Positions 5,690 through 49,179 of a DNA stretch of 56,914 nt are shown piece by piece. The notes beneath the pieces were generated by a model that did not search any database, was not told the origin of the DNA, and was given only the letters and a program-made list of their open reading frames with translations. The DNA comes from Solirubrobacteraceae bacterium (GTDB lineage: Bacteria > Actinomycetota > Thermoleophilia > Solirubrobacterales > Solirubrobacteraceae): NCBI GenBank assembly GCA_035262945.1, contig DATFRW010000351.1, positions 1 through 56,914 on the forward strand, given 5' to 3'. A program made the position numbers and the translations under genes. The number at the start of each line of letters is the position of its first letter. Positions within the stretch are counted from its first letter, which is position 1.

Positions 5690-6589
5690 ATGCTCGACGC
5701 TCGCTGGCTGCGGACCTTCGCCGCGGTCGTAGAGCACCGCTCCTTCGGCGCCGCCGCAACGGTGCTCGGCTACACGCAGTCCGCGGTCTCCCAGCAGATC
5801 GCCGAACTCGAGCGCGCCGCCGGGCTCGCTCTCTTGGAGCGCCGCCCGGTTCGCCCCACCCCCGCCGGCGAGATCGCCCTCAAGGCCGCCCACCAAACGG
5901 GTGCCGTCCTCGACGCGGCCGCCACCGAGCTGCGCGCGTTACGCGATGGCACCGCGGGCACCGTCCGCATCGGCGCCTTCCGAACAGCCGCGGAGATGCT
6001 CGTCGCACCCGCGCTCGAAACCTTCGCCGACCAGCACCCCAACGTCCGCGTCTGCATCGCGCAACTCGAGACCACCGCCGCCTACGCCGCCCTGATCAGT
6101 GGCGAAATCGACCTCGCCGTCACCTTTGACGACCAGCTCGAACACGCCCACGCGCCCGCGCCGATCACCCTCCGCCACCTCTTCACCGACGACGTGCTCA
6201 TCGCGCTACCCCACGGGCACCGACTCGCAGACCACGACGAAATCCTCCTCGGCGACCTGACATCAGAACGCTGGATCGACGCGCCCAACGCCGGCGACGA
6301 CTTCGCCCTCGCCCGCCTGCTCCCTGACCGTGAACGCGGCACCTCCTACGACGGCGACGACTTCGCGGTCGTTCTCGCCCTCGTCGCCGCCGGACTCGGC
6401 ATCGCCCTGATCGCCGGCCTGGCGGCACACGCGTCCCCCGCCGTCGTGACCAAGCGACTCGCCGGCCCACAGGTCGGGCGCGACATCAACCTCGCACGAC
6501 TGGACCTACAGACCGTGCCACCCGCCATCAGTGCGCTCGAAGCCCACCTCGCCGACACCGGGCGCCAGTTGGGCGGAGCCCAGACTTAA
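5690..6589 (+). CDS. LysR family transcriptional regulator
   Basis: 299 aa with N-terminal wHTH LRTFAAVVEHRSFGAAATVLGYTQSAVSQQIAELE and a C-terminal substrate-binding domain. Divergent from the M20/dpaL operon. Confidence 0.9.
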   Translation: MLDARWLRTFAAVVEHRSFGAAATVLGYTQSAVSQQIAELERAAGLALLERRPVRPTPAGEIALKAAHQTGAVLDAAATELRALRDGTAGTVRIGAFRTAAEMLVAPALETFADQHPNVRVCIAQLETTAAYAALISGEIDLAVTFDDQLEHAHAPAPITLRHLFTDDVLIALPHGHRLADHDEILLGDLTSERWIDAPNAGDDFALARLLPDRERGTSYDGDDFAVVLALVAAGLGIALIAGLAAHASPAVVTKRLAGPQVGRDINLARLDLQTVPPAISALEAHLADTGRQLGGAQT

Positions 6590-6938
6590 CCCTCAATCGA
6601 CGCATCGTTCTGCTCAACGCGAGCGTCTTGCTACACGCGCCGGTGCACAGCGACACGGCGCGGCGATGACCTCCCGGAGGCGACGGTCAGCGGGCGAGGG
6701 AGCCCGCAATGCCCGGGGCAGGACCGCGTGGGGTCACGTGGACGTCGGGGCCATCGTGTTGCCGGTGTCGGCCAGCGCATGCCCTCGCCGAGGCCCTCGT
6801 TCTGGGGCGTCATCCGGGAGCGTGCGTTCCTTGCGCTCTGCGTAGTTGACGACGAGGCTCAGCGCAAGGCGCGCGGCACCGGGCTAGTGCACCTGCGGCG
6901 GCGTGCGCGCGCAGCCGACGCGGTCGCGCTGGCGCCGC

Positions 6939-7631
6939 TCACGCCGCCGGCCCCGCGCGCAGAGGCTCGATCAGCGATGTGCTCACGACAACGTCGGCGT
7001 ACTGCCGGTCGAGGTCGAAGAGCGCTGTGCGGTGCGAGACGTCGATGCGGTCGAAGACGCAGTCCTCCGGGACGATGGTGCGGAAGTTGTAGGAGACGGC
7101 GTCGACCGCGGTGGCGCGCACGCAGTTGCTGGTCGAACCACCGGTCACGATCACGGTGTCGACGCCGCGATCGACCAGCAGAGCGAGTAGCGGAGTTCCG
7201 AAGAACGCGCTGGGCTTCTTCTTGACGAGCACAAGGTCGGAGTCGGCGGGCGCGACGGCGTCGGCGATCCGCGCGCCCTCGCTGCCCTCCAGGCACCAAC
7301 CCTCGGTGCTCAGGAGATCGCGCTTGCGACCGTAGGCGCCGATGTCGGCGCCGTCGCGGCGCAGCTCGAAGCGCGTGTAGACGACCGGCGCGCCCGCCGT
7401 GCGCGCCGCGTCGAGGAGCGCAGCCAGGCGGTCGAGCGCGGCGACGGCGGCGGGTCCGCACGCGGAGGGGTAGTCGTGCGTCGACCCCGGCGGCGGGCCG
7501 ACCATGTAGTTCTGGGCGTCGATCACCAGGACGGCGGGCCGTGCGCCCATGCCGACCCGGCGCCCGAAGCGGGCGCGCGCGACGATCTCGCGGTCGCGCT
7601 CGCTGAGCAGGTCGTCCCACGGCCGGGTCAT
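6939..7631 (-). CDS. Isochorismatase-family cysteine hydrolase (N-carbamoylsarcosine amidase/nicotinamidase-like), paralog 1
   Basis: 230 aa from MTRPWDD. AVLVIDAQN (Asp), KKKPSAFFGT (Lys) and VTGGSTSNCVRATA (Cys) form the D-K-C triad context. The start overlaps the upstream stop (TGATG). Confidence 0.85.
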   Translation of the reverse strand: MTRPWDDLLSERDREIVARARFGRRVGMGARPAVLVIDAQNYMVGPPPGSTHDYPSACGPAAVAALDRLAALLDAARTAGAPVVYTRFELRRDGADIGAYGRKRDLLSTEGWCLEGSEGARIADAVAPADSDLVLVKKKPSAFFGTPLLALLVDRGVDTVIVTGGSTSNCVRATAVDAVSYNFRTIVPEDCVFDRIDVSHRTALFDLDRQYADVVVSTSLIEPLRAGPAA

Positions 7632-8527
7632 CACACGATCGCCACCGGCTGGACGATCGACGCCGTCGCCCCGCGCAGCCGCGCGGGCAGGATCGCGCAG
7701 AAGAACTCGTGGACCCGATCGCGCACGAGCTCGTCGGTGCGGACGTTCTCCAGCAGGTAGCAGCCGTACTGCGCGATGCAGTGCTGGTGGACCGGGAAGA
7801 CGAGGTCGTCGCGCTCCGCGCCCACCGCTTCGACGGCCCAGTTGTCGGCCCCGATGACGGCGACCCGGCGATCGGTGCACCAGCGCGCGGCAGACAGCCC
7901 GATCCCGGGCTCGCCCGCGGCGTAGGCGGCATCATCGACGCCCCAGAGCGCTCCCCAACCGGTGTGCACGAGCACGACGTCGCCCGCGCCGACCTCGATG
8001 TCCTGGCGCGCCGCGGCCGCCTCGAGGTGCTCGTCGGTGATCGCCACGGTGGGGCCAAGCATGTCCCGTCCCTCGAGTCCCGCGACGTCGAGGAGCACCC
8101 CGCGCGTGACGATCGGGGGCACGGACTCGATCCCCAGGCGATCGACGCCCGTGGCACTGACGACCTCGGCGTAGCGATGGCCGTTGTAGGCGTGCTCGGC
8201 GATGCCGATGTGCGCAAGGCCGTCGAGGTGCGTGCCGCTGTGCGTGGCGCCCGAGACGGCCTCCTCGAGGAACGCCAGCCGGTTGGCGCCGAGTTCGCGG
8301 CCGGGAAGGGCACCGTCGGTCAGCAGGGCGTGCTTCCAGTAGCGCCACATCTGCGCCGGCGAGCCCTCGTCGAGAACCTGGGCCAGGCCGTAGCGTCGCC
8401 CCTGGCGGATGAGGCCGGCGGCGGCGCGGACCGTCTCGGGCTTGATCTCGTTGGCGGCCCCCAGCGTGTCGTCGGGCCCGTAGCGCTGCGGAAACGGCAG
8501 GTCGGCGGGGTTCCAGACCTCCGTCAT
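7631..8527 (-). CDS. Cyclase family protein (kynurenine formamidase-like fold)
   Basis: 298 aa from MTEVWNP. The HSGTHLDGLAH motif matches HxGTHxDxPxH. ATGA overlap with the upstream gene. Confidence 0.8.
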   Translation of the reverse strand: MTEVWNPADLPFPQRYGPDDTLGAANEIKPETVRAAAGLIRQGRRYGLAQVLDEGSPAQMWRYWKHALLTDGALPGRELGANRLAFLEEAVSGATHSGTHLDGLAHIGIAEHAYNGHRYAEVVSATGVDRLGIESVPPIVTRGVLLDVAGLEGRDMLGPTVAITDEHLEAAAARQDIEVGAGDVVLVHTGWGALWGVDDAAYAAGEPGIGLSAARWCTDRRVAVIGADNWAVEAVGAERDDLVFPVHQHCIAQYGCYLLENVRTDELVRDRVHEFFCAILPARLRGATASIVQPVAIV

Positions 8528-10596
8528 GGCTCTCGCTCCTCGGCGGTCGGCGCCCGCCGCAGCCCGAGCTGTTCGAGGATCGCGTCGGTGTCGGCGCCGA
8601 TCATGGTGGGCCCGGTGTGGCGGATGACGCCTGGCGTGCGGCTCAGCCGTGCGACGATGCCAGGCATCGCGATCGTGCCGAGGTCCTCGTCGGGAGCCTC
8701 GACGATCGAACCGCGCGCGCGGTAGTGCGGGTCCTCGAGGATCTGCGCCGCGTCGTAGACCGGCGCAATCGGCGCCTGGACGGCGGCGAATGCCTCCAGG
8801 ACCTCGTCGAGCGGGCGCGCCGCGATCCACTCGGCCACGAGGCGGTCCACCTCGTCCGCGTTGGCGCGCCGCGCCGCGGCGTCTGCGAAGCGCGGGTCCT
8901 GCGCGAGCTCGGGGCGCCCGATCGCAGCGAAGATGCGGTTGGTGATCTGCTGGGTGCCGCCCGACAGAGCGACCCACCGCCCGTCGCCGGTCTCGTAGGC
9001 GTTGCGAGGCGCGGTCCGCGGCGAGCGGTTGCCCTGGCGCTTCTGCACGACGCCGGCGTGCTGGTACTCGGCCAGCTGCGGACCGAGGATGCTGAACAGC
9101 GGCTCGTACAGGCTGAGGTCGATCACCTGGCCCTCCCGGCCGTGGCGCGCGTCGCGCCAGTAGAGCGCGACCATCGTGGCGAACGTGCCCGCCAGCCCGG
9201 CGATCCCGTCCGCCAGGCCAAAGGGCGGCAGCGTTGGCGGCCCGTCGGGCCAACCGGTGATGTGGGCGAAGCCCGAGAAGGCCTCGGCCAGGGTGCCGAA
9301 CCCAGGCTGCGAGCTGCGCGGGCCGGTCTGCCCGAAGCCCGTCATGCGCACGAAGACCAGGCGGCGGTTGAGCGCCGCCAGATCCTCGGGGCCCAGGCCC
9401 CACGCCTCCATCCGCCCGGGACGGAAGTTCTCGATAAGGACGTCGGCCTGCGCGGCGAGACGGCGAGCGACCTCGCGATCGGCGTCCTTGTTGAGGTCGA
9501 GGGCGATGACGCGCTTGTTGCGCGAGATGACCTTCCACCACAGCGGCACGCCGTCCTTGGCCAGCCCCCAGCGGCGGGCGTCGTCGCCGCGGGGGTGCTC
9601 GACCTTGATCACCTCGGCGCCGAAGTCACCGAGGTTGGTGGCGATGAGCGGCGCGGCGTACAGACTCGAGAGGTCGAGCACGCGCACGCCGGCGAGCGGC
9701 ATGGCCGGGGCGCTGCCGTCGACCGGCTCGCCGGCACCGGCCAGCCGACGCCGGGCGTGCGCGGCGACCGGATAGTCGATGAAGCGGCCGTCGATGTGGA
9801 TGTTGGCCACGCCCTCGCGCTCGCTGCGGTCGAACGCGGTGACCACGGTCCGGGCGCGCGCCAACTCGGCCTCGCCCGGGACGAAGACCTCCTCGATGAC
9901 GGGCAGCTGGGCCGGGTGGATCGCGTGCTTACCCGCGAAGCCGAGGGCGCGCGCCTCCTCGGCCTCGATGCGCAGCGTCTCGAGGTCCTTGAAGTCGGGG
10001 AACACGCCGTCGTGGGGCGGCGCGAGCTCGGCCACGCGCGACCTGAGCACGAGCTGGGCCTTGGCGCCCACGATCGTCGCGCTGAGGCGCCGGCCCGGCG
10101 GCGGCCACTCGAGGCCGAGGTCCAGGGAGAAGTCGCCCGCCCCGAACCCCAGGCAGTGCACGCGATCGCTGGCCCGGCCGATCTCGACAGCGCGCTCCAG
10201 CGCGGCCGCCGACTCGATCGTCGCGATGACCTCCACCGGCCGCGCGAGGCCGCGCTCGCGCTCGAGCGCGGTGAGCACGCCCGCGAGCGTCTGGACGTGC
10301 TCGGCGGTCTGGGCCTTCGGGAGCACGATGCCCGTCAGCCCGGGGACGACCACATGCTGGAGGTCCTCGTGGAGCAGGCCGCTCTCGAAGGAGTTGATGC
10401 GGACATAGAGCGTGACCGCGGGGCCGTGGCACTGGATGGCCGCGGCCACGATGCGCCGCGCCGTGGGTTTGGCCGACACCGCCACGGCGTCCTCGAGATC
10501 GAGGATGTACGCCTTCGCGTGGAGGCGCGGGATGTTGTCGAGCTTGTCCTGCGCGCCACCCGGGACGTAAAGCATCGCCGTGAGGGCCGCCGTCAT
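8524..10596 (-). CDS. Fusion protein: CitE/HpcH-like acyl-CoA lyase (N-terminal, about 285 aa) + family III CoA-transferase CaiB/BaiF (C-terminal, about 390 aa)
   Basis: The N-terminal part has LYVPGG...ILDLEDAV...IESA..., a CitE beta-subunit pattern. After the linker GEPVDGSAPAMP comes LAGVRVLDLSSLYAAPLIATNLGDFGAEVIKVEHP, a CaiB N-terminus. The frame is continuous for 690 aa. ATGA overlap with iclR upstream. Confidence 0.85.
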   Translation of the reverse strand: MTAALTAMLYVPGGAQDKLDNIPRLHAKAYILDLEDAVAVSAKPTARRIVAAAIQCHGPAVTLYVRINSFESGLLHEDLQHVVVPGLTGIVLPKAQTAEHVQTLAGVLTALERERGLARPVEVIATIESAAALERAVEIGRASDRVHCLGFGAGDFSLDLGLEWPPPGRRLSATIVGAKAQLVLRSRVAELAPPHDGVFPDFKDLETLRIEAEEARALGFAGKHAIHPAQLPVIEEVFVPGEAELARARTVVTAFDRSEREGVANIHIDGRFIDYPVAAHARRRLAGAGEPVDGSAPAMPLAGVRVLDLSSLYAAPLIATNLGDFGAEVIKVEHPRGDDARRWGLAKDGVPLWWKVISRNKRVIALDLNKDADREVARRLAAQADVLIENFRPGRMEAWGLGPEDLAALNRRLVFVRMTGFGQTGPRSSQPGFGTLAEAFSGFAHITGWPDGPPTLPPFGLADGIAGLAGTFATMVALYWRDARHGREGQVIDLSLYEPLFSILGPQLAEYQHAGVVQKRQGNRSPRTAPRNAYETGDGRWVALSGGTQQITNRIFAAIGRPELAQDPRFADAAARRANADEVDRLVAEWIAARPLDEVLEAFAAVQAPIAPVYDAAQILEDPHYRARGSIVEAPDEDLGTIAMPGIVARLSRTPGVIRHTGPTMIGADTDAILEQLGLRRAPTAEEREP

Positions 10597-11324
10597 CCCG
10601 CCAACCCGCTCCCCAGCGCCGCCGAGAGGCGCTCGGCCACAGCGCGCACACGCGGCTCGGCACGCCCCATTGCATCAAGGTCCCAGCGATCGGCGGGCCC
10701 GGCGACAGAGATCGACGCCACGGGAGTGCCCGCGCGGAACAGGGGGACCGACAGCGCGCCGACGCCCGGTGTGCGATCGCCGATCACCGCCATGGCCCCT
10801 CGTGCGCGGATGCTCTCCAGCTCACGCAGGAGTGCGTCGCGGTTACGGCCCGCCGCGGGCGTGATGAGCGGCCGGATCTCGCTGTCGGGCAGGAACGCAA
10901 GCATGACCTTCCCTGATGGACCGACACAGAGGGGCAGGCTCTCGCCGAGCGAGAGGACGCGGCAGAGCTCGTGCCTGCTCTCGGCCCCGGCCACGCACAC
11001 GCGCCGGCGACCCACACGCAGGTGAAGGCTGGCGGTCTCTCCCGTCTCGTCGCGCAGGGACTGCAGGTGCGGGCCCGCCAGCGAGGGCAGGTCGGAGGTG
11101 CGCATGGCGGCCGCCGAAAGCGATAGGAGCCCTGGGCCGACGCCGTAGCCCTTGGTCGCGGGCTGGCGCTGGATGAGCGTCCGCTCCTCCAGGAAGCCGA
11201 GCAGGCGTGCCGTCGTGCTCTTGTCGATGCCGGTGGCGCCGGCCAGCTCCATGAGCTTGAGCGGTCGCGAGCTGCCGGCAATCAGCTCCAGCAGGTCGAG
11301 TGTTCGTGCCGCAGTCTGGCTCAT
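10593..11324 (-). CDS. IclR family transcriptional regulator
   Basis: 243 aa with an N-terminal wHTH (TLDLLELIAGSSRPLKLMELAGATGIDKSTTARLLGFLEE) and a C-terminal IclR effector domain. First gene of a 4-gene coupled operon. Confidence 0.9.
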   Translation of the reverse strand: MSQTAARTLDLLELIAGSSRPLKLMELAGATGIDKSTTARLLGFLEERTLIQRQPATKGYGVGPGLLSLSAAAMRTSDLPSLAGPHLQSLRDETGETASLHLRVGRRRVCVAGAESRHELCRVLSLGESLPLCVGPSGKVMLAFLPDSEIRPLITPAAGRNRDALLRELESIRARGAMAVIGDRTPGVGALSVPLFRAGTPVASISVAGPADRWDLDAMGRAEPRVRAVAERLSAALGSGLAG

Positions 11325-11351
11325 GCAATTCTCATTGTACGAGAACAGATA

Positions 11352-11588
11352 TCAACATGTGAAATGACCCTGGTCGAGCGCGAACGAGGTCTCCTCGATC
11401 GTGTTCGTCCCCTGGGTCACCACGACGCCGGCGTCGCCTTCGGCGATCCGGCGCCGGATCTCCTCGGCGAGCGCGGTGAGGTCCGCAAGCGTCAGTTCGG
11501 GCGTGGGCACCTGGCGGAAGGTGTCGGCGCGGATCCGAGCGACATCGGCCAAGCCCGGCACGTTCTCGACGCGCTGGTCGGCGGTCAG
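11352..11588 (-). pseudogene. L-asparaginase fragment (about 78 codons of the N-terminal domain)
   Basis: The translation ...VENVPGLADVARIRADTFRQVPTPELTLADLTALAEEIRRRIAEGDAGVVVTQGTNTIEETSFALD aligns to the asparaginase region ending in the GfVItHGTDTmEET motif. The GGTI N-terminus and everything after ALD are missing. It ends in an AT-rich junction. Confidence 0.5.
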
Positions 11589-12595
11589 CGTGGGCGCGAC
11601 GCCCGCGCCGGTCGGATGTTCGCGCCGGTGTCGGCGAGCCTCTGGAACGTGTCGAGTGATTGCTTCAGCCGGTCGACGTCGAGCCCCCGGGTGATGAAGA
11701 CGATGCCCCCGGCCGGATCGGCGATCGCCGCTCGCGTGATGTGCTCGGGCATGTGCATGACGTGCTGGACGCCGTTGACCGAGGCGAGGGTGCCGTCGTC
11801 GAGTTCGATCAGTCCCTTGACGCGGAGCACCTGCTCCCCACGCGCGTGTAACAACATGCTGAGCCAGATCGAGAAGGCCAGCCAGTCGAGAGGCGCGTCC
11901 GCCGGCACGGAGAGGACGCGAACGTCGTCGGTGTGGTGACCGCTGATCTCGGGCGTGTCTGGGTCCGCCGTCCGCGCGGCCGCCCCGGCGGCCGGTCGCA
12001 GCTCCTCGTCGCCCACGACGCCGTAGAGCGCAGAGCGAATGCGGGCAGTCGGGTTCAGCTTCGCCAGCTCGGAGACGAGGTGCTCGGCCGGCTGGTCGTC
12101 GCCAAGGAGATCGAGCTTGGTGAGCACCAGCTCGTCGGCGAGCAGAATCTGCTTGGCCACCTCGGGGTGGGCGTCGAGCTGGCCGGGTCCGTTGTAGCCG
12201 TCGACCGTGACGATCAGCCGCTCCACGTAGTAGTGGTGGCGGAGCATGGGGTGATGGGCGATCGTGAAAACGATCGGTGCCGGATCGGCAAGCCCACTGC
12301 ACTCGATCACCACGCGGCTCAAGCGCGCTGTTCCGCGGTCGTGAGCGTCCAGCAACTCGACCAGGGTCTCCTCGAGATCCTCGCGTCGCGTACAGCAGGC
12401 GCACCCGCCGCCGACGATCGCCACCCGCGCCTCACTCGACCGCAGGAGCTTGTGATCCACGCTGACGGCGCCGAACTCGTTGACGATCACCGCGGTATCG
12501 GGCGCGCCGGTGAGCATGTGCCGGAGCAACGACGTCTTGCCCGAGCCGAGGAAGCCGCCGAGGATCGTGACGGGGATGCGCCCGGATTCGGTCAC
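11585..12595 (-). CDS. COG0523/CobW-family G3E GTPase (metallochaperone)
   Basis: 336 aa with Walker A GGFLGSGKTS, metal motif GCACC (CxCC), IECSGLADP, and a CobW C-terminal domain. Confidence 0.88.
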   Translation of the reverse strand: MTESGRIPVTILGGFLGSGKTSLLRHMLTGAPDTAVIVNEFGAVSVDHKLLRSSEARVAIVGGGCACCTRREDLEETLVELLDAHDRGTARLSRVVIECSGLADPAPIVFTIAHHPMLRHHYYVERLIVTVDGYNGPGQLDAHPEVAKQILLADELVLTKLDLLGDDQPAEHLVSELAKLNPTARIRSALYGVVGDEELRPAAGAAARTADPDTPEISGHHTDDVRVLSVPADAPLDWLAFSIWLSMLLHARGEQVLRVKGLIELDDGTLASVNGVQHVMHMPEHITRAAIADPAGGIVFITRGLDVDRLKQSLDTFQRLADTGANIRPARASRPR

Positions 12596-12910: not shown

Positions 12911-13792
12911 TCATCCTTGGAACGGCTGACGGCGCCTGAAGTCGTCGGCAGCCTGCTCCATCGTCATCCAGGTCACGCCCTCATGCTGGTTCATGTAGGC
13001 GATCAGGCGCTCCAGCATGAGGAGCACCTGCGGCCGGCCGCTCACGTCGGGATGGATCGTGAACGCGAACACCGCATAGTCCATGTTCGCGAACACCCAG
13101 TCGAACTGGTCGCGCCACATCTCCTCGATGTCGCGCGGATTGACGAAGCCGTGGCTGTTCGGCGACCCCTTGATGAACATCATCGGCGGCAGGTCGTCGA
13201 GGTACCAGTTGGCGCCGATTTCCACCAGGTCGATCTCGCGGCCGCGCACGAGCGGCTTCATCCACTCGCTGGCTTGCTTGGTGAAGTCGATCTTCGTCCA
13301 CTCGTCGCCCACGCGCGCGTAGAACGGGGTGAAGTCGTTGTAGCCCTGGCTGTGGTCGTACGTGAAGCCGTACTTCTGCAGCAGCTCGGCCGTGCCGCTC
13401 GACATCTCCCACCATGGAGCTACGTATCCGCGCGGCTTGCTACCGGAGACCCGCTCGATGAGGTCGACGCACTTCGCGAGCACGTCCTCCTCCTGCTTCG
13501 GGCTCATCGCCATGGGGTTCTCGTGCGAGTAACCGTGCGCGCCGATCTCGTGCCCGGCGTCGACGATCATCTTGATGGAGTCCGGGAAGGTCTCGATCGA
13601 GTGGCCGGGGATGAACCAGCTCGCGGGAATGTCGTACTTCTTAAAGAGGTTGAGCAGCCGCGGCGTGCCCACCTCACCGGAGAACATGCCTCGCTGAATG
13701 TCGGAGGGTGAATCCTCGCCGCCATAGGAACCCAGCCACCCACCGACGGCGTCGATGTCCACGCCGAAAACGGCATTGATCTCCTTCGCCAC
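12911..13792 (-). CDS. Polysaccharide deacetylase (CE4/NodB-homology) family metal-dependent hydrolase
   Basis: 293 aa. GVDIDAV (Asp-Asp motif region), [12 protein letters not shown] (His-His metal motif) and WYLDD are present. GTG start 7 nt after AAGGGAG. GC is visibly lower than in neighbouring genes. Confidence 0.8.
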
Positions 13793-47928: not shown

Positions 47929-49179
47929 TCACACCACACCCTGCTCGCGCAGGCGCTCGAGCTCGGCCTCGTCGACGCCGACCTCGTTGAGTACATCGGC
48001 CGTGTCGGCGCCGAGCGTCCAGCGGGCGGCCTGGCGAACGCGCCCCGGCGTTCGGGTCAGCCGCGGCACGACGCCGGGCGCGGTGATCCGTCCGTGGACC
48101 TCGTCGTCGTACTCGATGAGCAGACGGCGCTCCTTGAAGTAGGGGTCGCGGTAGACGTCCTCGGCGGTGTAGACGGGGGCGCAGACCACGCCCGCCTCGT
48201 TGACCAGTCCGTCGAGCTCCTCGGCGGTGTGCTTGATCGCCCACTCGCCGATGAGCTCGTCCAGCAGGTCCTCGTTCTGCCCACGAGCGTGATGGGAGTT
48301 GAAGCGCTCATCGTCGGCGAGCTCGGGCTTGCCGATGAGGGCGGCCAGGCGGCGCCACAGCGTGTCGTGGTTGGCCGCGATCACCACCCAGCGGCCGTCC
48401 TTGGATCGGTAGACGTTGGAAGGAGCGATCCGTGGCAGCCGCGGCCCGGTCGGCTCGCGGATGACGCCCGCCTTCTCGTACTCGAGCACCGAGGACTCCG
48501 TCATGGCGAAGCACGCGTCAGTGATCGAGGCGTCGACGACCTGGCCCTCCATGCCGCGCGCGTCGCGGGCGTAGAGCGCCAGCAGGATCCCCTGGAACGC
48601 CGACTGCGCCGCGAGCGTGTCGCCGAGGGAAATCCCGTAACGGGGCGGCGCCTCGTCGGGGTAGCCGTTGAAGTACCGCAGGCCCGACATCGCCTCGCTG
48701 GCCGACGCGAACCCCGGCCGGTCGCGGTAGCGGCCGATCTGGCCGTATCCGGTCACGCGCGCGTAGATGGCGCGCGGGTTGACGGCATGGACGTCCTCGG
48801 GTCCGAGGCCCCAGCGTTCCATGGTCCCCGGGCGGAAGTTCTCGACGATGATGTCGGCCTCCTGAGCGAGGCGCCGTCCGACCGCCTGGCCCTCTTCGGT
48901 GCGCAGGTTCAGCGTCACCGAGCGCTTGTTGCGCGCCAGGATCGACCACCACAGCGAGTGGTCGTTGTGGCGCAGGCGCCCCCAGTCGCGCATCGCGTCG
49001 CCCTTGGGGGGCGGCTCGACCTTGATCACCTCGGCGCCGAAGTCGCCCAGGAGCGTGCCGACGTAAGGGCCGGCGAGGAGCTGGCCGAACTCGACGGCCT
49101 TCAGCCCCTGCAGCGGCCCATCGGCCAGCGCCTTGCCCGCGTCGCGCGTGTCCGTGGTGCCGCTCTGGACGCCGGTCAT
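47929..49179 (-). CDS. Family III CoA-transferase (CaiB/BaiF)
   Basis: 416 aa from MTGVQSG. LQGLKAVEFGQLLAGPYVGTLLGDFGAEVIKVEPP and ENFRPG are present. ATGA overlap with the permease gene. Confidence 0.88.
   Translation of the reverse strand: MTGVQSGTTDTRDAGKALADGPLQGLKAVEFGQLLAGPYVGTLLGDFGAEVIKVEPPPKGDAMRDWGRLRHNDHSLWWSILARNKRSVTLNLRTEEGQAVGRRLAQEADIIVENFRPGTMERWGLGPEDVHAVNPRAIYARVTGYGQIGRYRDRPGFASASEAMSGLRYFNGYPDEAPPRYGISLGDTLAAQSAFQGILLALYARDARGMEGQVVDASITDACFAMTESSVLEYEKAGVIREPTGPRLPRIAPSNVYRSKDGRWVVIAANHDTLWRRLAALIGKPELADDERFNSHHARGQNEDLLDELIGEWAIKHTAEELDGLVNEAGVVCAPVYTAEDVYRDPYFKERRLLIEYDDEVHGRITAPGVVPRLTRTPGRVRQAARWTLGADTADVLNEVGVDEAELERLREQGVV

Follow-up and report, generated by a model that had tools for sequence, protein, structure and literature searches.

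Does a single gene in a Solirubrobacteraceae genome encode both the CoA activation and the carbon-carbon cleavage of an organic acid, and if so, in what pathway? The gene in question lies on contig DATFRW010000351.1 (assembly GCA_035262945.1), whose 56,914 nucleotides (nt) are the whole stretch of DNA that we analysed and are referred to here as the window. It joins an N-terminal CitE-like (HpcH/HpaI) acyl-coenzyme A (CoA) lyase to a C-terminal family III (CaiB/BaiF) CoA-transferase. Pairs of a CoA-transferase and a CitE-type lyase serve to detoxify itaconate, to assimilate acetate and glyoxylate and to fix CO2, and synthetic pathways make use of them as well. Malyl-, citramalyl- and itaconyl-CoA intermediates are labile or toxic, and fusions of consecutive pathway enzymes are common. 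With a natural single-chain version, the question of whether joining the two enzymes leads to recycling or channelling of CoA can be addressed directly.

The fusion gene is one 690-codon open reading frame (ORF) with an ATG start at 8524-10596 on the minus strand, and its product is 690 amino acids (aa) long. An earlier note on this DNA had proposed that a CitE-like lyase and a family III CoA-transferase share the polypeptide. A scan with hidden Markov models (HMMs) bore this out, as both Pfam domains matched the same protein and both were complete. HpcH_HpaI covered residues 7-228 (E = 5.8e-38, profile positions 2-221 of 221) and C-C_Bond_Lyase covered residues 3-268, while the lyase part extends to about residue 285. 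The match of the N-terminal half to CitE-type models was strong. CoA_transf_3 covered residues 301-670 (E = 6.8e-121, profile positions 1-366 of 366). Every motif that the note had listed was located in the protein: LYVPGG at residues 9-14, DLEDAV at 33-38, IESA at 127-130 and LAGVRVLDLS...DFGAEVIKVEHP starting at residue 301. Between the domains lies a 15-residue linker of Ala, Pro and Gly (AGAGEPVDGSAPAMP; residues 286-300, positions 9697-9741, minus strand), essentially where a Pro/Gly/Ala linker had been placed beforehand (about 9706-9742). In the AlphaFold2 (AF2) model the predicted local distance difference test score (pLDDT) drops below 50 at residues 291-297.

One possible origin of such an ORF is a sequencing or assembly artefact in which two adjacent genes were joined by a missed stop or a frameshift in the linker. 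The source genome is a fragmented metagenome-assembled genome (MAG) of 367 contigs and 78.5% completeness, and separate adjacent lyase and transferase genes are a common arrangement. However, no sign of a stop or a frameshift was found. The 90%-identity cluster of the fusion protein contains eight more members from independent JGI/ENA (metagenome) assemblies, seven of them 690 aa long and one 653 aa long. A protein search returned about 55 fused clusters in which both Pfam domains are present; they are 59-75% identical to the fusion protein along 97-100% of its length. In 51 fused homologs the linker ranged from 8 to 54 residues (65% Ala, Pro, Gly or Ser), with the frame intact in 51 of 51. 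The public homologs include Gaiellaceae MAG proteins and WP_146916355.1 of Baekduia soli ("aldolase/citrate lyase family protein"), which is encoded on a 5.2-Mb contig, probably a complete genome. GC content is 0.73-0.74 through the gene, with no break in composition at the junction. Since proteins of the same size and nearly the same sequence occur in other assemblies, the fused clusters are many and the linkers vary while staying in frame, an artefact is very unlikely, barely credible. We regard it as confirmed, on these sequence comparisons, that the fusion is a genuine single gene joining a CoA-transferase to a CitE-type lyase.

The fusion is not unique to the window. Its public homologs keep the order lyase, linker, transferase; they carry automatic annotations only and are uncharacterised. 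A keyword search found no published description of a lyase-transferase fusion or its gene cluster, nor did an itaconate-cluster paper contain one.

A survey of the architecture, which the earlier note had called for, indicated how the fused form is distributed. Among 1.84 billion 50%-identity cluster representatives, the full-length lyase-transferase forms amount to a single one (P0018); a representative with the reverse order (P0148) was among the top 150 matches. Matches in two stretches were dominated by tandem family III transferase proteins of about 800 aa (P0139, P0140, P0142 and about 85 others). In genome samples that include many incomplete genomes, the fused gene was found in 1 of 400 genomes of the family Solirubrobacteraceae. 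It was found in 0 of 24 species of the same genus, 0 of 300 genomes of the same class and 0 of 300 genomes from the class to which a Solirubrobacteraceae MAG belongs. A search for related loci in genome and metagenome contigs, in which matches to widely conserved words of the DFGAEVIK type predominated, returned relatives of 45-58% identity and no close fused ortholog among them. In these 170 loci the two genes were most often separate neighbors on the same strand, with the transferase followed by the lyase in 87 and the lyase followed by the transferase in 13. Three further loci had a lyase nearby on the opposite strand and one had a reverse-order fusion. The fusion is rare and the unfused adjacent pair is very common. 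The 100 same-strand pairs among 170 loci also agree with the statement in the note that characterised systems keep the transferase and the lyase separate.

How did the fusion arise? In a FastTree phylogeny of the transferase domain, which has local supports only and some long branches, 49 of the 51 fused proteins fell in one clade (support 95). Its sister group consists of transferase-isochorismatase fusions (support 82). As a sister lineage keeps both a lyase gene and a transferase gene, overlapping by ATGA, the most likely origin of the fusion is a pair of neighboring lyase and transferase genes that were translationally coupled. Two reverse-order fusions fell in two other clades. Since the fused and reverse-order forms occupy separate clades of the tree, lyase and transferase were joined on at least three occasions. 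The reverse-order proteins, with an N-terminal transferase and a C-terminal CitE-like lyase, are P0112, P0148 and the product of L123:1010-2992, and P0112 is placed next to a Rubrobacter locus (L018) whose two genes are still separate. Another member of the same transferase orthogroup, P0143 (640 aa), has a nitroreductase domain fused to its C-terminus.

Are both halves likely to be active? The lyase domain (residues 1-285; 9742-10596, minus strand) belongs to the CitE-like superfamily by its scores on PF03328 (130.8 bits, cut-off 25) and PF15617 (53.1 bits, cut-off 28.4). Its nearest solved relatives are 1sgj (1.3e-34), Rhodobacter malyl-CoA lyase 4l9y (6.3e-29) and the human lyase CLYBL (5vxc, 1.1e-28). 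R66, E128, D155 and D274 are invariant in 32 aligned fused homologs, and D33 and E35 are conserved in at least 90%. The four invariant residues align with the equivalent residues of 4l9y and 1sgj; in the 4l9y chain, E128, D155 and D274 correspond to positions 162, 189 and 320, which we take to be Mg2+ ligands and the C-terminal catalytic Asp. For these residues we presume the roles described for the Mcl, CitE and CLYBL structures, in which Glu and Asp bind Mg2+, Arg binds the substrate and the C-terminal Asp is catalytic. AF2 modeled this domain with pLDDT >90 over about residues 10-280. Its best NCBIfam matches were CitE and RipC/Ccl, both below the equivalog cut-off.

The transferase domain (residues 301-690 and the stop codon; 8524-9696, minus strand) is equally clear as a family member, with 404.3 bits on PF02515 (cut-off 23.3) over profile positions 1-366 of 366. 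Its solved relatives include 4ed9 (5.4e-59), 10uh, the human transferase SUGCT (9br7) and YfdE (4hl6). In this family a catalytic Asp forms an acyl-aspartyl anhydride. The corresponding residue in the fusion is D463 (codon 9208-9210), which is invariant in the fused homologs. In the alignments it falls on the conserved Asp of YfdE, 4ed9 and 10uh, as well as on Asp156 of MCR, the racemase of M. tuberculosis. In the AF2 monomer model, pLDDT is low at residues 421-461 and 496-524, which could reflect segments that need a dimer to become ordered. Both halves keep their catalytic residues, which supports the prediction that both are competent.

The three best NCBIfam matches of the transferase domain were succinate-glutarate CoA-transferase (219 bits, cut-off 750), succinyl-CoA:mesaconate CoA-transferase (205 bits, cut-off 700) and CoA:oxalate CoA-transferase (196 bits, cut-off 522). 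All three were rejected as equivalogs, being below their cut-offs. Because all three are dicarboxylate transferases, they support a short dicarboxylate as the substrate, with no specific one identified.

Alternatively, the C-terminal domain could work as a family III racemase, or shift CoA within one molecule as mesaconyl-CoA C1-C4 transferase does, and in this way supply the lyase with the acyl-CoA isomer that it requires. The family does include alpha-methylacyl-CoA racemases (match 1.4e-40) and 2-methylfumaryl-CoA isomerase. However, the racemase catalytic His is absent: the position of MCR His126 is F433 in the fusion, and transferase activity is favored over racemase activity on this account. 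The isomerase model gave 59.6 bits against a cut-off of 725, compared with 196-219 bits for the intermolecular dicarboxylate transferases. Furthermore, an operon that yields a free acid, as the partner genes described below suggest, needs an activating step, and a ligase is absent. We therefore consider a racemase or isomerase quite improbable.

The partner genes bear on what the intermolecular transferase and the lyase might act upon. The fusion gene is the second of four on the minus strand, in the order iclR, fusion, cyclase, isochorismatase. The iclR and fusion genes overlap by ATGA, as do the fusion and cyclase genes, while the cyclase stop and the isochorismatase start share one base (TGATG). 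These overlaps and the Pfam assignments agree with the tightly coupled operon that the earlier note had described, consisting of an IclR-type regulator, the fusion, a cyclase/formamidase-fold gene and an isochorismatase-like gene.

The third gene (7631-8527, minus strand), translationally coupled to the fusion gene, encodes a 298-aa metal-dependent hydrolase of the cyclase fold (PF04199, 2.2e-26; PDB 5ibz, 1.6e-31). The metal motif HxGTHxDxxxH is present at residues 96-106 as HSGTHLDGLAH, and its residues H96, H100, D102 and H106 do not vary among 33 homologs. Its AF2 model has a predicted template modeling score (pTM) of 0.90, and Foldseek matched it to 5ibz, isatin hydrolases, kynurenine formamidases and a cyclase-phosphotriesterase, with probability 1.0 for the isatin hydrolases and kynurenine formamidases.

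The last gene (6939-7631, minus strand) encodes a 230-aa cysteine amidohydrolase of the isochorismatase fold (PF00857, 7.9e-36). Its nearest PDB entries are 26st (6.4e-33) and 1nba, then 4l07/4l08 and 3ot4/3uao (1.2e-24). An Asp-Lys-Cys triad is present, as D38, K137 and C170 align with the triad of the N-carbamoylsarcosine amidohydrolase 26st. The entry 3uao is the maleamate amidohydrolase NicF (PMC5806882). The operon protein therefore belongs to the subgroup of Cys-amidohydrolases found in pathways for nicotinate and N-heterocycles (NicD with NicF; RutB; BiuH; N-carbamoylsarcosine amidase), although it missed the equivalog cut-offs for RutB and BiuH. As in those pathways, its gene is preceded by that of a second hydrolase, which resembles the succession of ring opening or deformylation and then amide hydrolysis (PMC5806882). 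On the other hand, the nicotinate-type pathways end in a free acid without CoA chemistry, while the fusion operon links the amidase to a CoA-transferase and a lyase.

The first gene (10593-11324, minus strand) encodes an IclR-family regulator of 243 aa (IclR_C, 2.2e-23; HTH_IclR, 1.4e-10). Its best NCBIfam match was BhcR, at 107 bits against a cut-off of 350, and it is not an equivalog.

Two other lineages indicate which of these genes belong together. In the Solirubrobacteraceae genome G893 (5.2 Mb, probably Baekduia soli), the order fusion, cyclase, isochorismatase is kept at 65%, 65% and 73% identity, respectively. In place of the iclR gene it has a gene for a PrpB-like lyase (methylisocitrate-lyase-like, of the phosphoenolpyruvate (PEP)-mutase/isocitrate lyase (ICL) family) and a crotonase gene, which lie divergently upstream of the fusion (L172:10583-12378). 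The methylisocitrate-lyase-like product scored 273 bits against a cut-off of 354. Judged by their families, the divergent genes of G893 could supply hydration and a second C-C cleavage.

Four Micromonosporaceae genomes (G1269, G1253, G1227 and G1252; loci L182-L185) carry orthologs of the transferase (69-71% identity) and of the amidase (68-72%), with the transferase directly upstream of and in frame with the amidase; three of the four matched a fused query end to end. The stand-alone relatives nearest to the transferase domain have this transferase-amidase architecture, which was found by Pfam in P0120 and P0141 and by precomputed annotation in P0122; the product of the separate amidase gene of the window shares 68% identity with the P0120 amidase domain. 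In the Micromonosporaceae the lyase is a separate upstream gene, which at L184 has 4 nt in common with the transferase gene. The L184 operon consists of an ADC/MppR-like gene, the lyase, the transferase-amidase fusion, a PuuE-like CE4 hydrolase and an IclR gene. This CE4 hydrolase, which scored 293 bits on the allantoinase PuuE model (cut-off 424.6), takes the place of the cyclase. IclR-like matches occurred near all four loci. The alternative fusion points, lyase to transferase in the window and transferase to amidase in the Micromonosporaceae, place amidase, transferase and lyase in one pathway.

Cyclase orthologs are numerous (57-74% identity) and, going by contigs of equal length, appear to share contigs with stand-alone transferase orthologs. 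In 26 of the more distant loci a cyclase gene follows the transferase.

Taken with the domain assignments, these data make it probable that the fusion is a bifunctional enzyme that transfers CoA to a short dicarboxylate and then cleaves a C-C bond, as the last two of four steps in a conserved, IclR-controlled amide-catabolic module. Amide or N-heterocycle catabolism is pointed to because the operon partners are two hydrolases. In this pathway the metal-dependent hydrolase, of the cyclase fold in the window and PuuE-like in the Micromonosporaceae, would open or deacylate an amide or cyclic amide. The cysteine amidohydrolase, of the N-carbamoylsarcosine amidase/maleamate amidase type, would then release the free (dicarboxylic) acid. 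The C-terminal transferase domain would move CoA from acetyl-CoA or succinyl-CoA to this short, probably hydroxylated, dicarboxylic acid, and the N-terminal Mg2+-dependent lyase domain would carry out a retro-Claisen/aldol cleavage to a 2-oxo acid and a short acyl-CoA. Should this thioester be acetyl-CoA, it could serve as the donor for the next round and close a CoA cycle on the fused protein. The route would probably lead from a nitrogen-containing organic acid derivative, an amide or cyclic amide, through a dicarboxylate to central metabolites. We infer in which order the steps run, that the substrate is a dicarboxylate, that CoA is recycled or channelled and which oligomer forms. As CitE-like proteins are trimers and family III transferases are interlocked dimers, a hexamer or larger assembly of the fusion protein is expected by analogy. 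A trimer-forming and a dimer-forming domain forced into one assembly are an interesting structural target.

Several observations weigh against this bifunctional enzyme of amide catabolism. None of the four operon proteins reaches an NCBIfam equivalog cut-off. A CitE-type lyase needs a beta-hydroxyacyl-CoA, and a hydratase gene is absent from the four-gene operon; unless the acid already carries a hydroxyl group, the chemistry must depart from that proposed. For the full-length fusion, AF2 gave a pTM of 0.50, with no confident arrangement of the two domains and no structural support for a tunnel or channelling. Five genuine stand-alone transferases are nested inside the fused clade, and the fusion is thus dispensable. 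The IclR gene is not conserved at the G893 locus and the cyclase is absent from the Micromonosporaceae loci, so that the strictly conserved part of the module, as judged from the sequences, is three enzymes only. Lastly, a Meiothermus MAG (L001:2431-15334) has a lyase and transferase pair, with a 65% identical transferase of the same orthogroup, in a quite different context, where the neighbors are three ADP-ribosylglycohydrolase-family genes, a sugar-type ABC transporter, PucR and an M20 peptidase.

How does the proposed chemistry compare with that of known systems? The earlier note had cited itaconate degradation, citrate lyase and the malyl-CoA route as examples. It was right that these use separate proteins; membership of the fusion in each of them did not hold, since the equivalog cut-offs were missed.

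By analogy, the closest match to the proposed chemistry is the Chloroflexus/Rhodobacter malyl-CoA route (succinyl-CoA:malate CoA-transferase SmtAB and malyl-CoA lyase Mcl). There, a family III transferase activates a hydroxy-dicarboxylate and a CitE-fold lyase cleaves the product directly, with no hydratase. Mcl (4l9y) aligns with residues 8-276 of the fusion and the Mg-binding and catalytic residues are kept, although this is a superfamily-level likeness (E = 6e-29). As an equivalog, malyl-CoA/beta-methylmalyl-CoA lyase was rejected, with 44.7 bits on the haloarchaeal model NF041626 against a cut-off of 500, though the fusion may still act on malyl-CoA. The SmtAB and Mcl proteins are separate and their context is autotrophy or acetate assimilation, in contrast to the amide-catabolic operon considered here.

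An assimilatory role, like that of malate synthase, is an alternative. The lyase would condense glyoxylate or pyruvate with acetyl-CoA to malyl-CoA or citramalyl-CoA, respectively, and the transferase would pass the CoA to acetate or succinate and free the hydroxy-acid, so that the thioester energy is kept. CitE-type lyases are reversible, as established for malyl-CoA lyase, and this enzyme is the second-best solved relative of the lyase domain. In addition, BhcR, AllR and IclR, the NCBIfam regulators nearest to that of the operon, respond to glyoxylate, although all three scores were far short of the cut-offs. Genes for the catabolism of ureides and hydantoins, which are possible sources of glyoxylate, abound in the window. 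On the other hand, the conserved partners are two amidohydrolases, one of which is fused to the transferase elsewhere; delivery of an acid fits this arrangement better than export of a product. The low score on the malyl-CoA lyase model also stands against an assimilatory role, which we consider rather unlikely.

The itaconate systems (Ict/Ich/Ccl of Pseudomonas, RipABC of Yersinia) and human SUGCT and CLYBL likewise have a dicarboxylate CoA-transferase working with a CitE-like lyase, and the best solved relatives of the two domains of the fusion include SUGCT and CLYBL. Could the fusion be a joined itaconate pair, an Ict-type CoA-transferase and a (S)-citramalyl-CoA lyase (Ccl)? In a pseudomonad itaconate cluster, a family III transferase and a CitE-like lyase are reported to be partners (PMC12290011). 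Partial matches to the RipC_Ccl and succinyl-CoA:mesaconate transferase models also fit. However, RipC_Ccl (NF038242) gave 133.5 bits against a cut-off of 375, and the mesaconate transferase score given above was far from its cut-off as well. In the itaconate systems the proteins are separate and a hydratase acts between the steps. The fusion operon lacks a gene for itaconyl-CoA hydratase and has amidohydrolases, conserved neighbors that have no role in itaconate degradation. Membership in the Ict/Ich/Ccl system was therefore rejected, and a fused itaconate pair is an improbable explanation.

Citrate lyase (CitDEF) is similar in another respect, as thioester exchange onto a hydroxy-polycarboxylate is followed by a CitE-fold cleavage that regenerates the acetyl thioester. 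The lyase domain matches TIGR01588 (citE) along its whole length, at 165.2 bits; against the cut-off of 443.4 bits, this led us to reject citrate lyase membership. The transferase in that system is CitF and the carrier is an acyl carrier protein (ACP), whereas the fusion has a family III transferase on one chain with the lyase. CitF (PF04223) and CitD (PF06857) had no match in the source genome, which is 78.5% complete, and for this reason free CoA would be the carrier.

From this comparison it could be speculated that the fusion is a self-contained, ACP-free machine of the citrate lyase type, in which acetyl-CoA would pass directly from the lyase site back to the transferase site. It would stand at the end of an undescribed pathway for a cyclic imide, lactam or ureide whose enzymes have been fused in different pairs across the actinobacteria. 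Candidate substrates would be a hydroxy- or alkyl-succinimide or maleimide, as from tetrapyrrole breakdown, or a hydantoin-like ring. This is conceivable, if doubtful. If true, catalytic amounts of CoA would suffice to split a hydroxy-dicarboxylate.

The bifunctional enzyme of amide catabolism, which we prefer, does not overturn existing knowledge. Together, the lyase-transferase and transferase-amidase fusions tie three enzyme families into one uncharacterised module, and they are an entry point to its substrate.

Transcription of the operon could start directly ahead of iclR. A promoter-pattern search predicted the promoter TTCACA-18-TACAAT (11334-11363, minus strand), and the interval 6500-11700 contains two promoter-like sites (0.1 expected), both directly upstream of iclR. 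Only 9 nt separate the end of the predicted promoter from the ATG of iclR, which would leave the mRNA with little or no leader. A short palindrome, TTCTC-N7-GAGAA, lies over the -10 hexamer (11325-11365, minus strand); it is a candidate IclR operator, short enough to have arisen by chance. Just upstream of the predicted promoter, positions 11390-11425 (minus strand) read VVTQGTNTIEET in one frame, resembling an asparaginase-like relic.

A COG0523/DUF3891 cluster contains, 1.6 kb upstream of the operon, a gene of the CE4 polysaccharide-deacetylase fold (12914-13792, minus strand). We considered it as an equivalent of the PuuE-like gene at the Micromonosporaceae loci and rejected it as part of the module, as it showed 29% identity over 126 residues and 74 bits on the PuuE model, compared with 293 for the Micromonosporaceae gene. 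The window contains another family III transferase at 47956-49119. Elsewhere, the source MAG carries three further pairs of an unfused lyase and a family III transferase (C201:2500-4553, C46:23926-26953 and C157:9317-12250), and in the C201 pair the two genes are just 30 nt apart.

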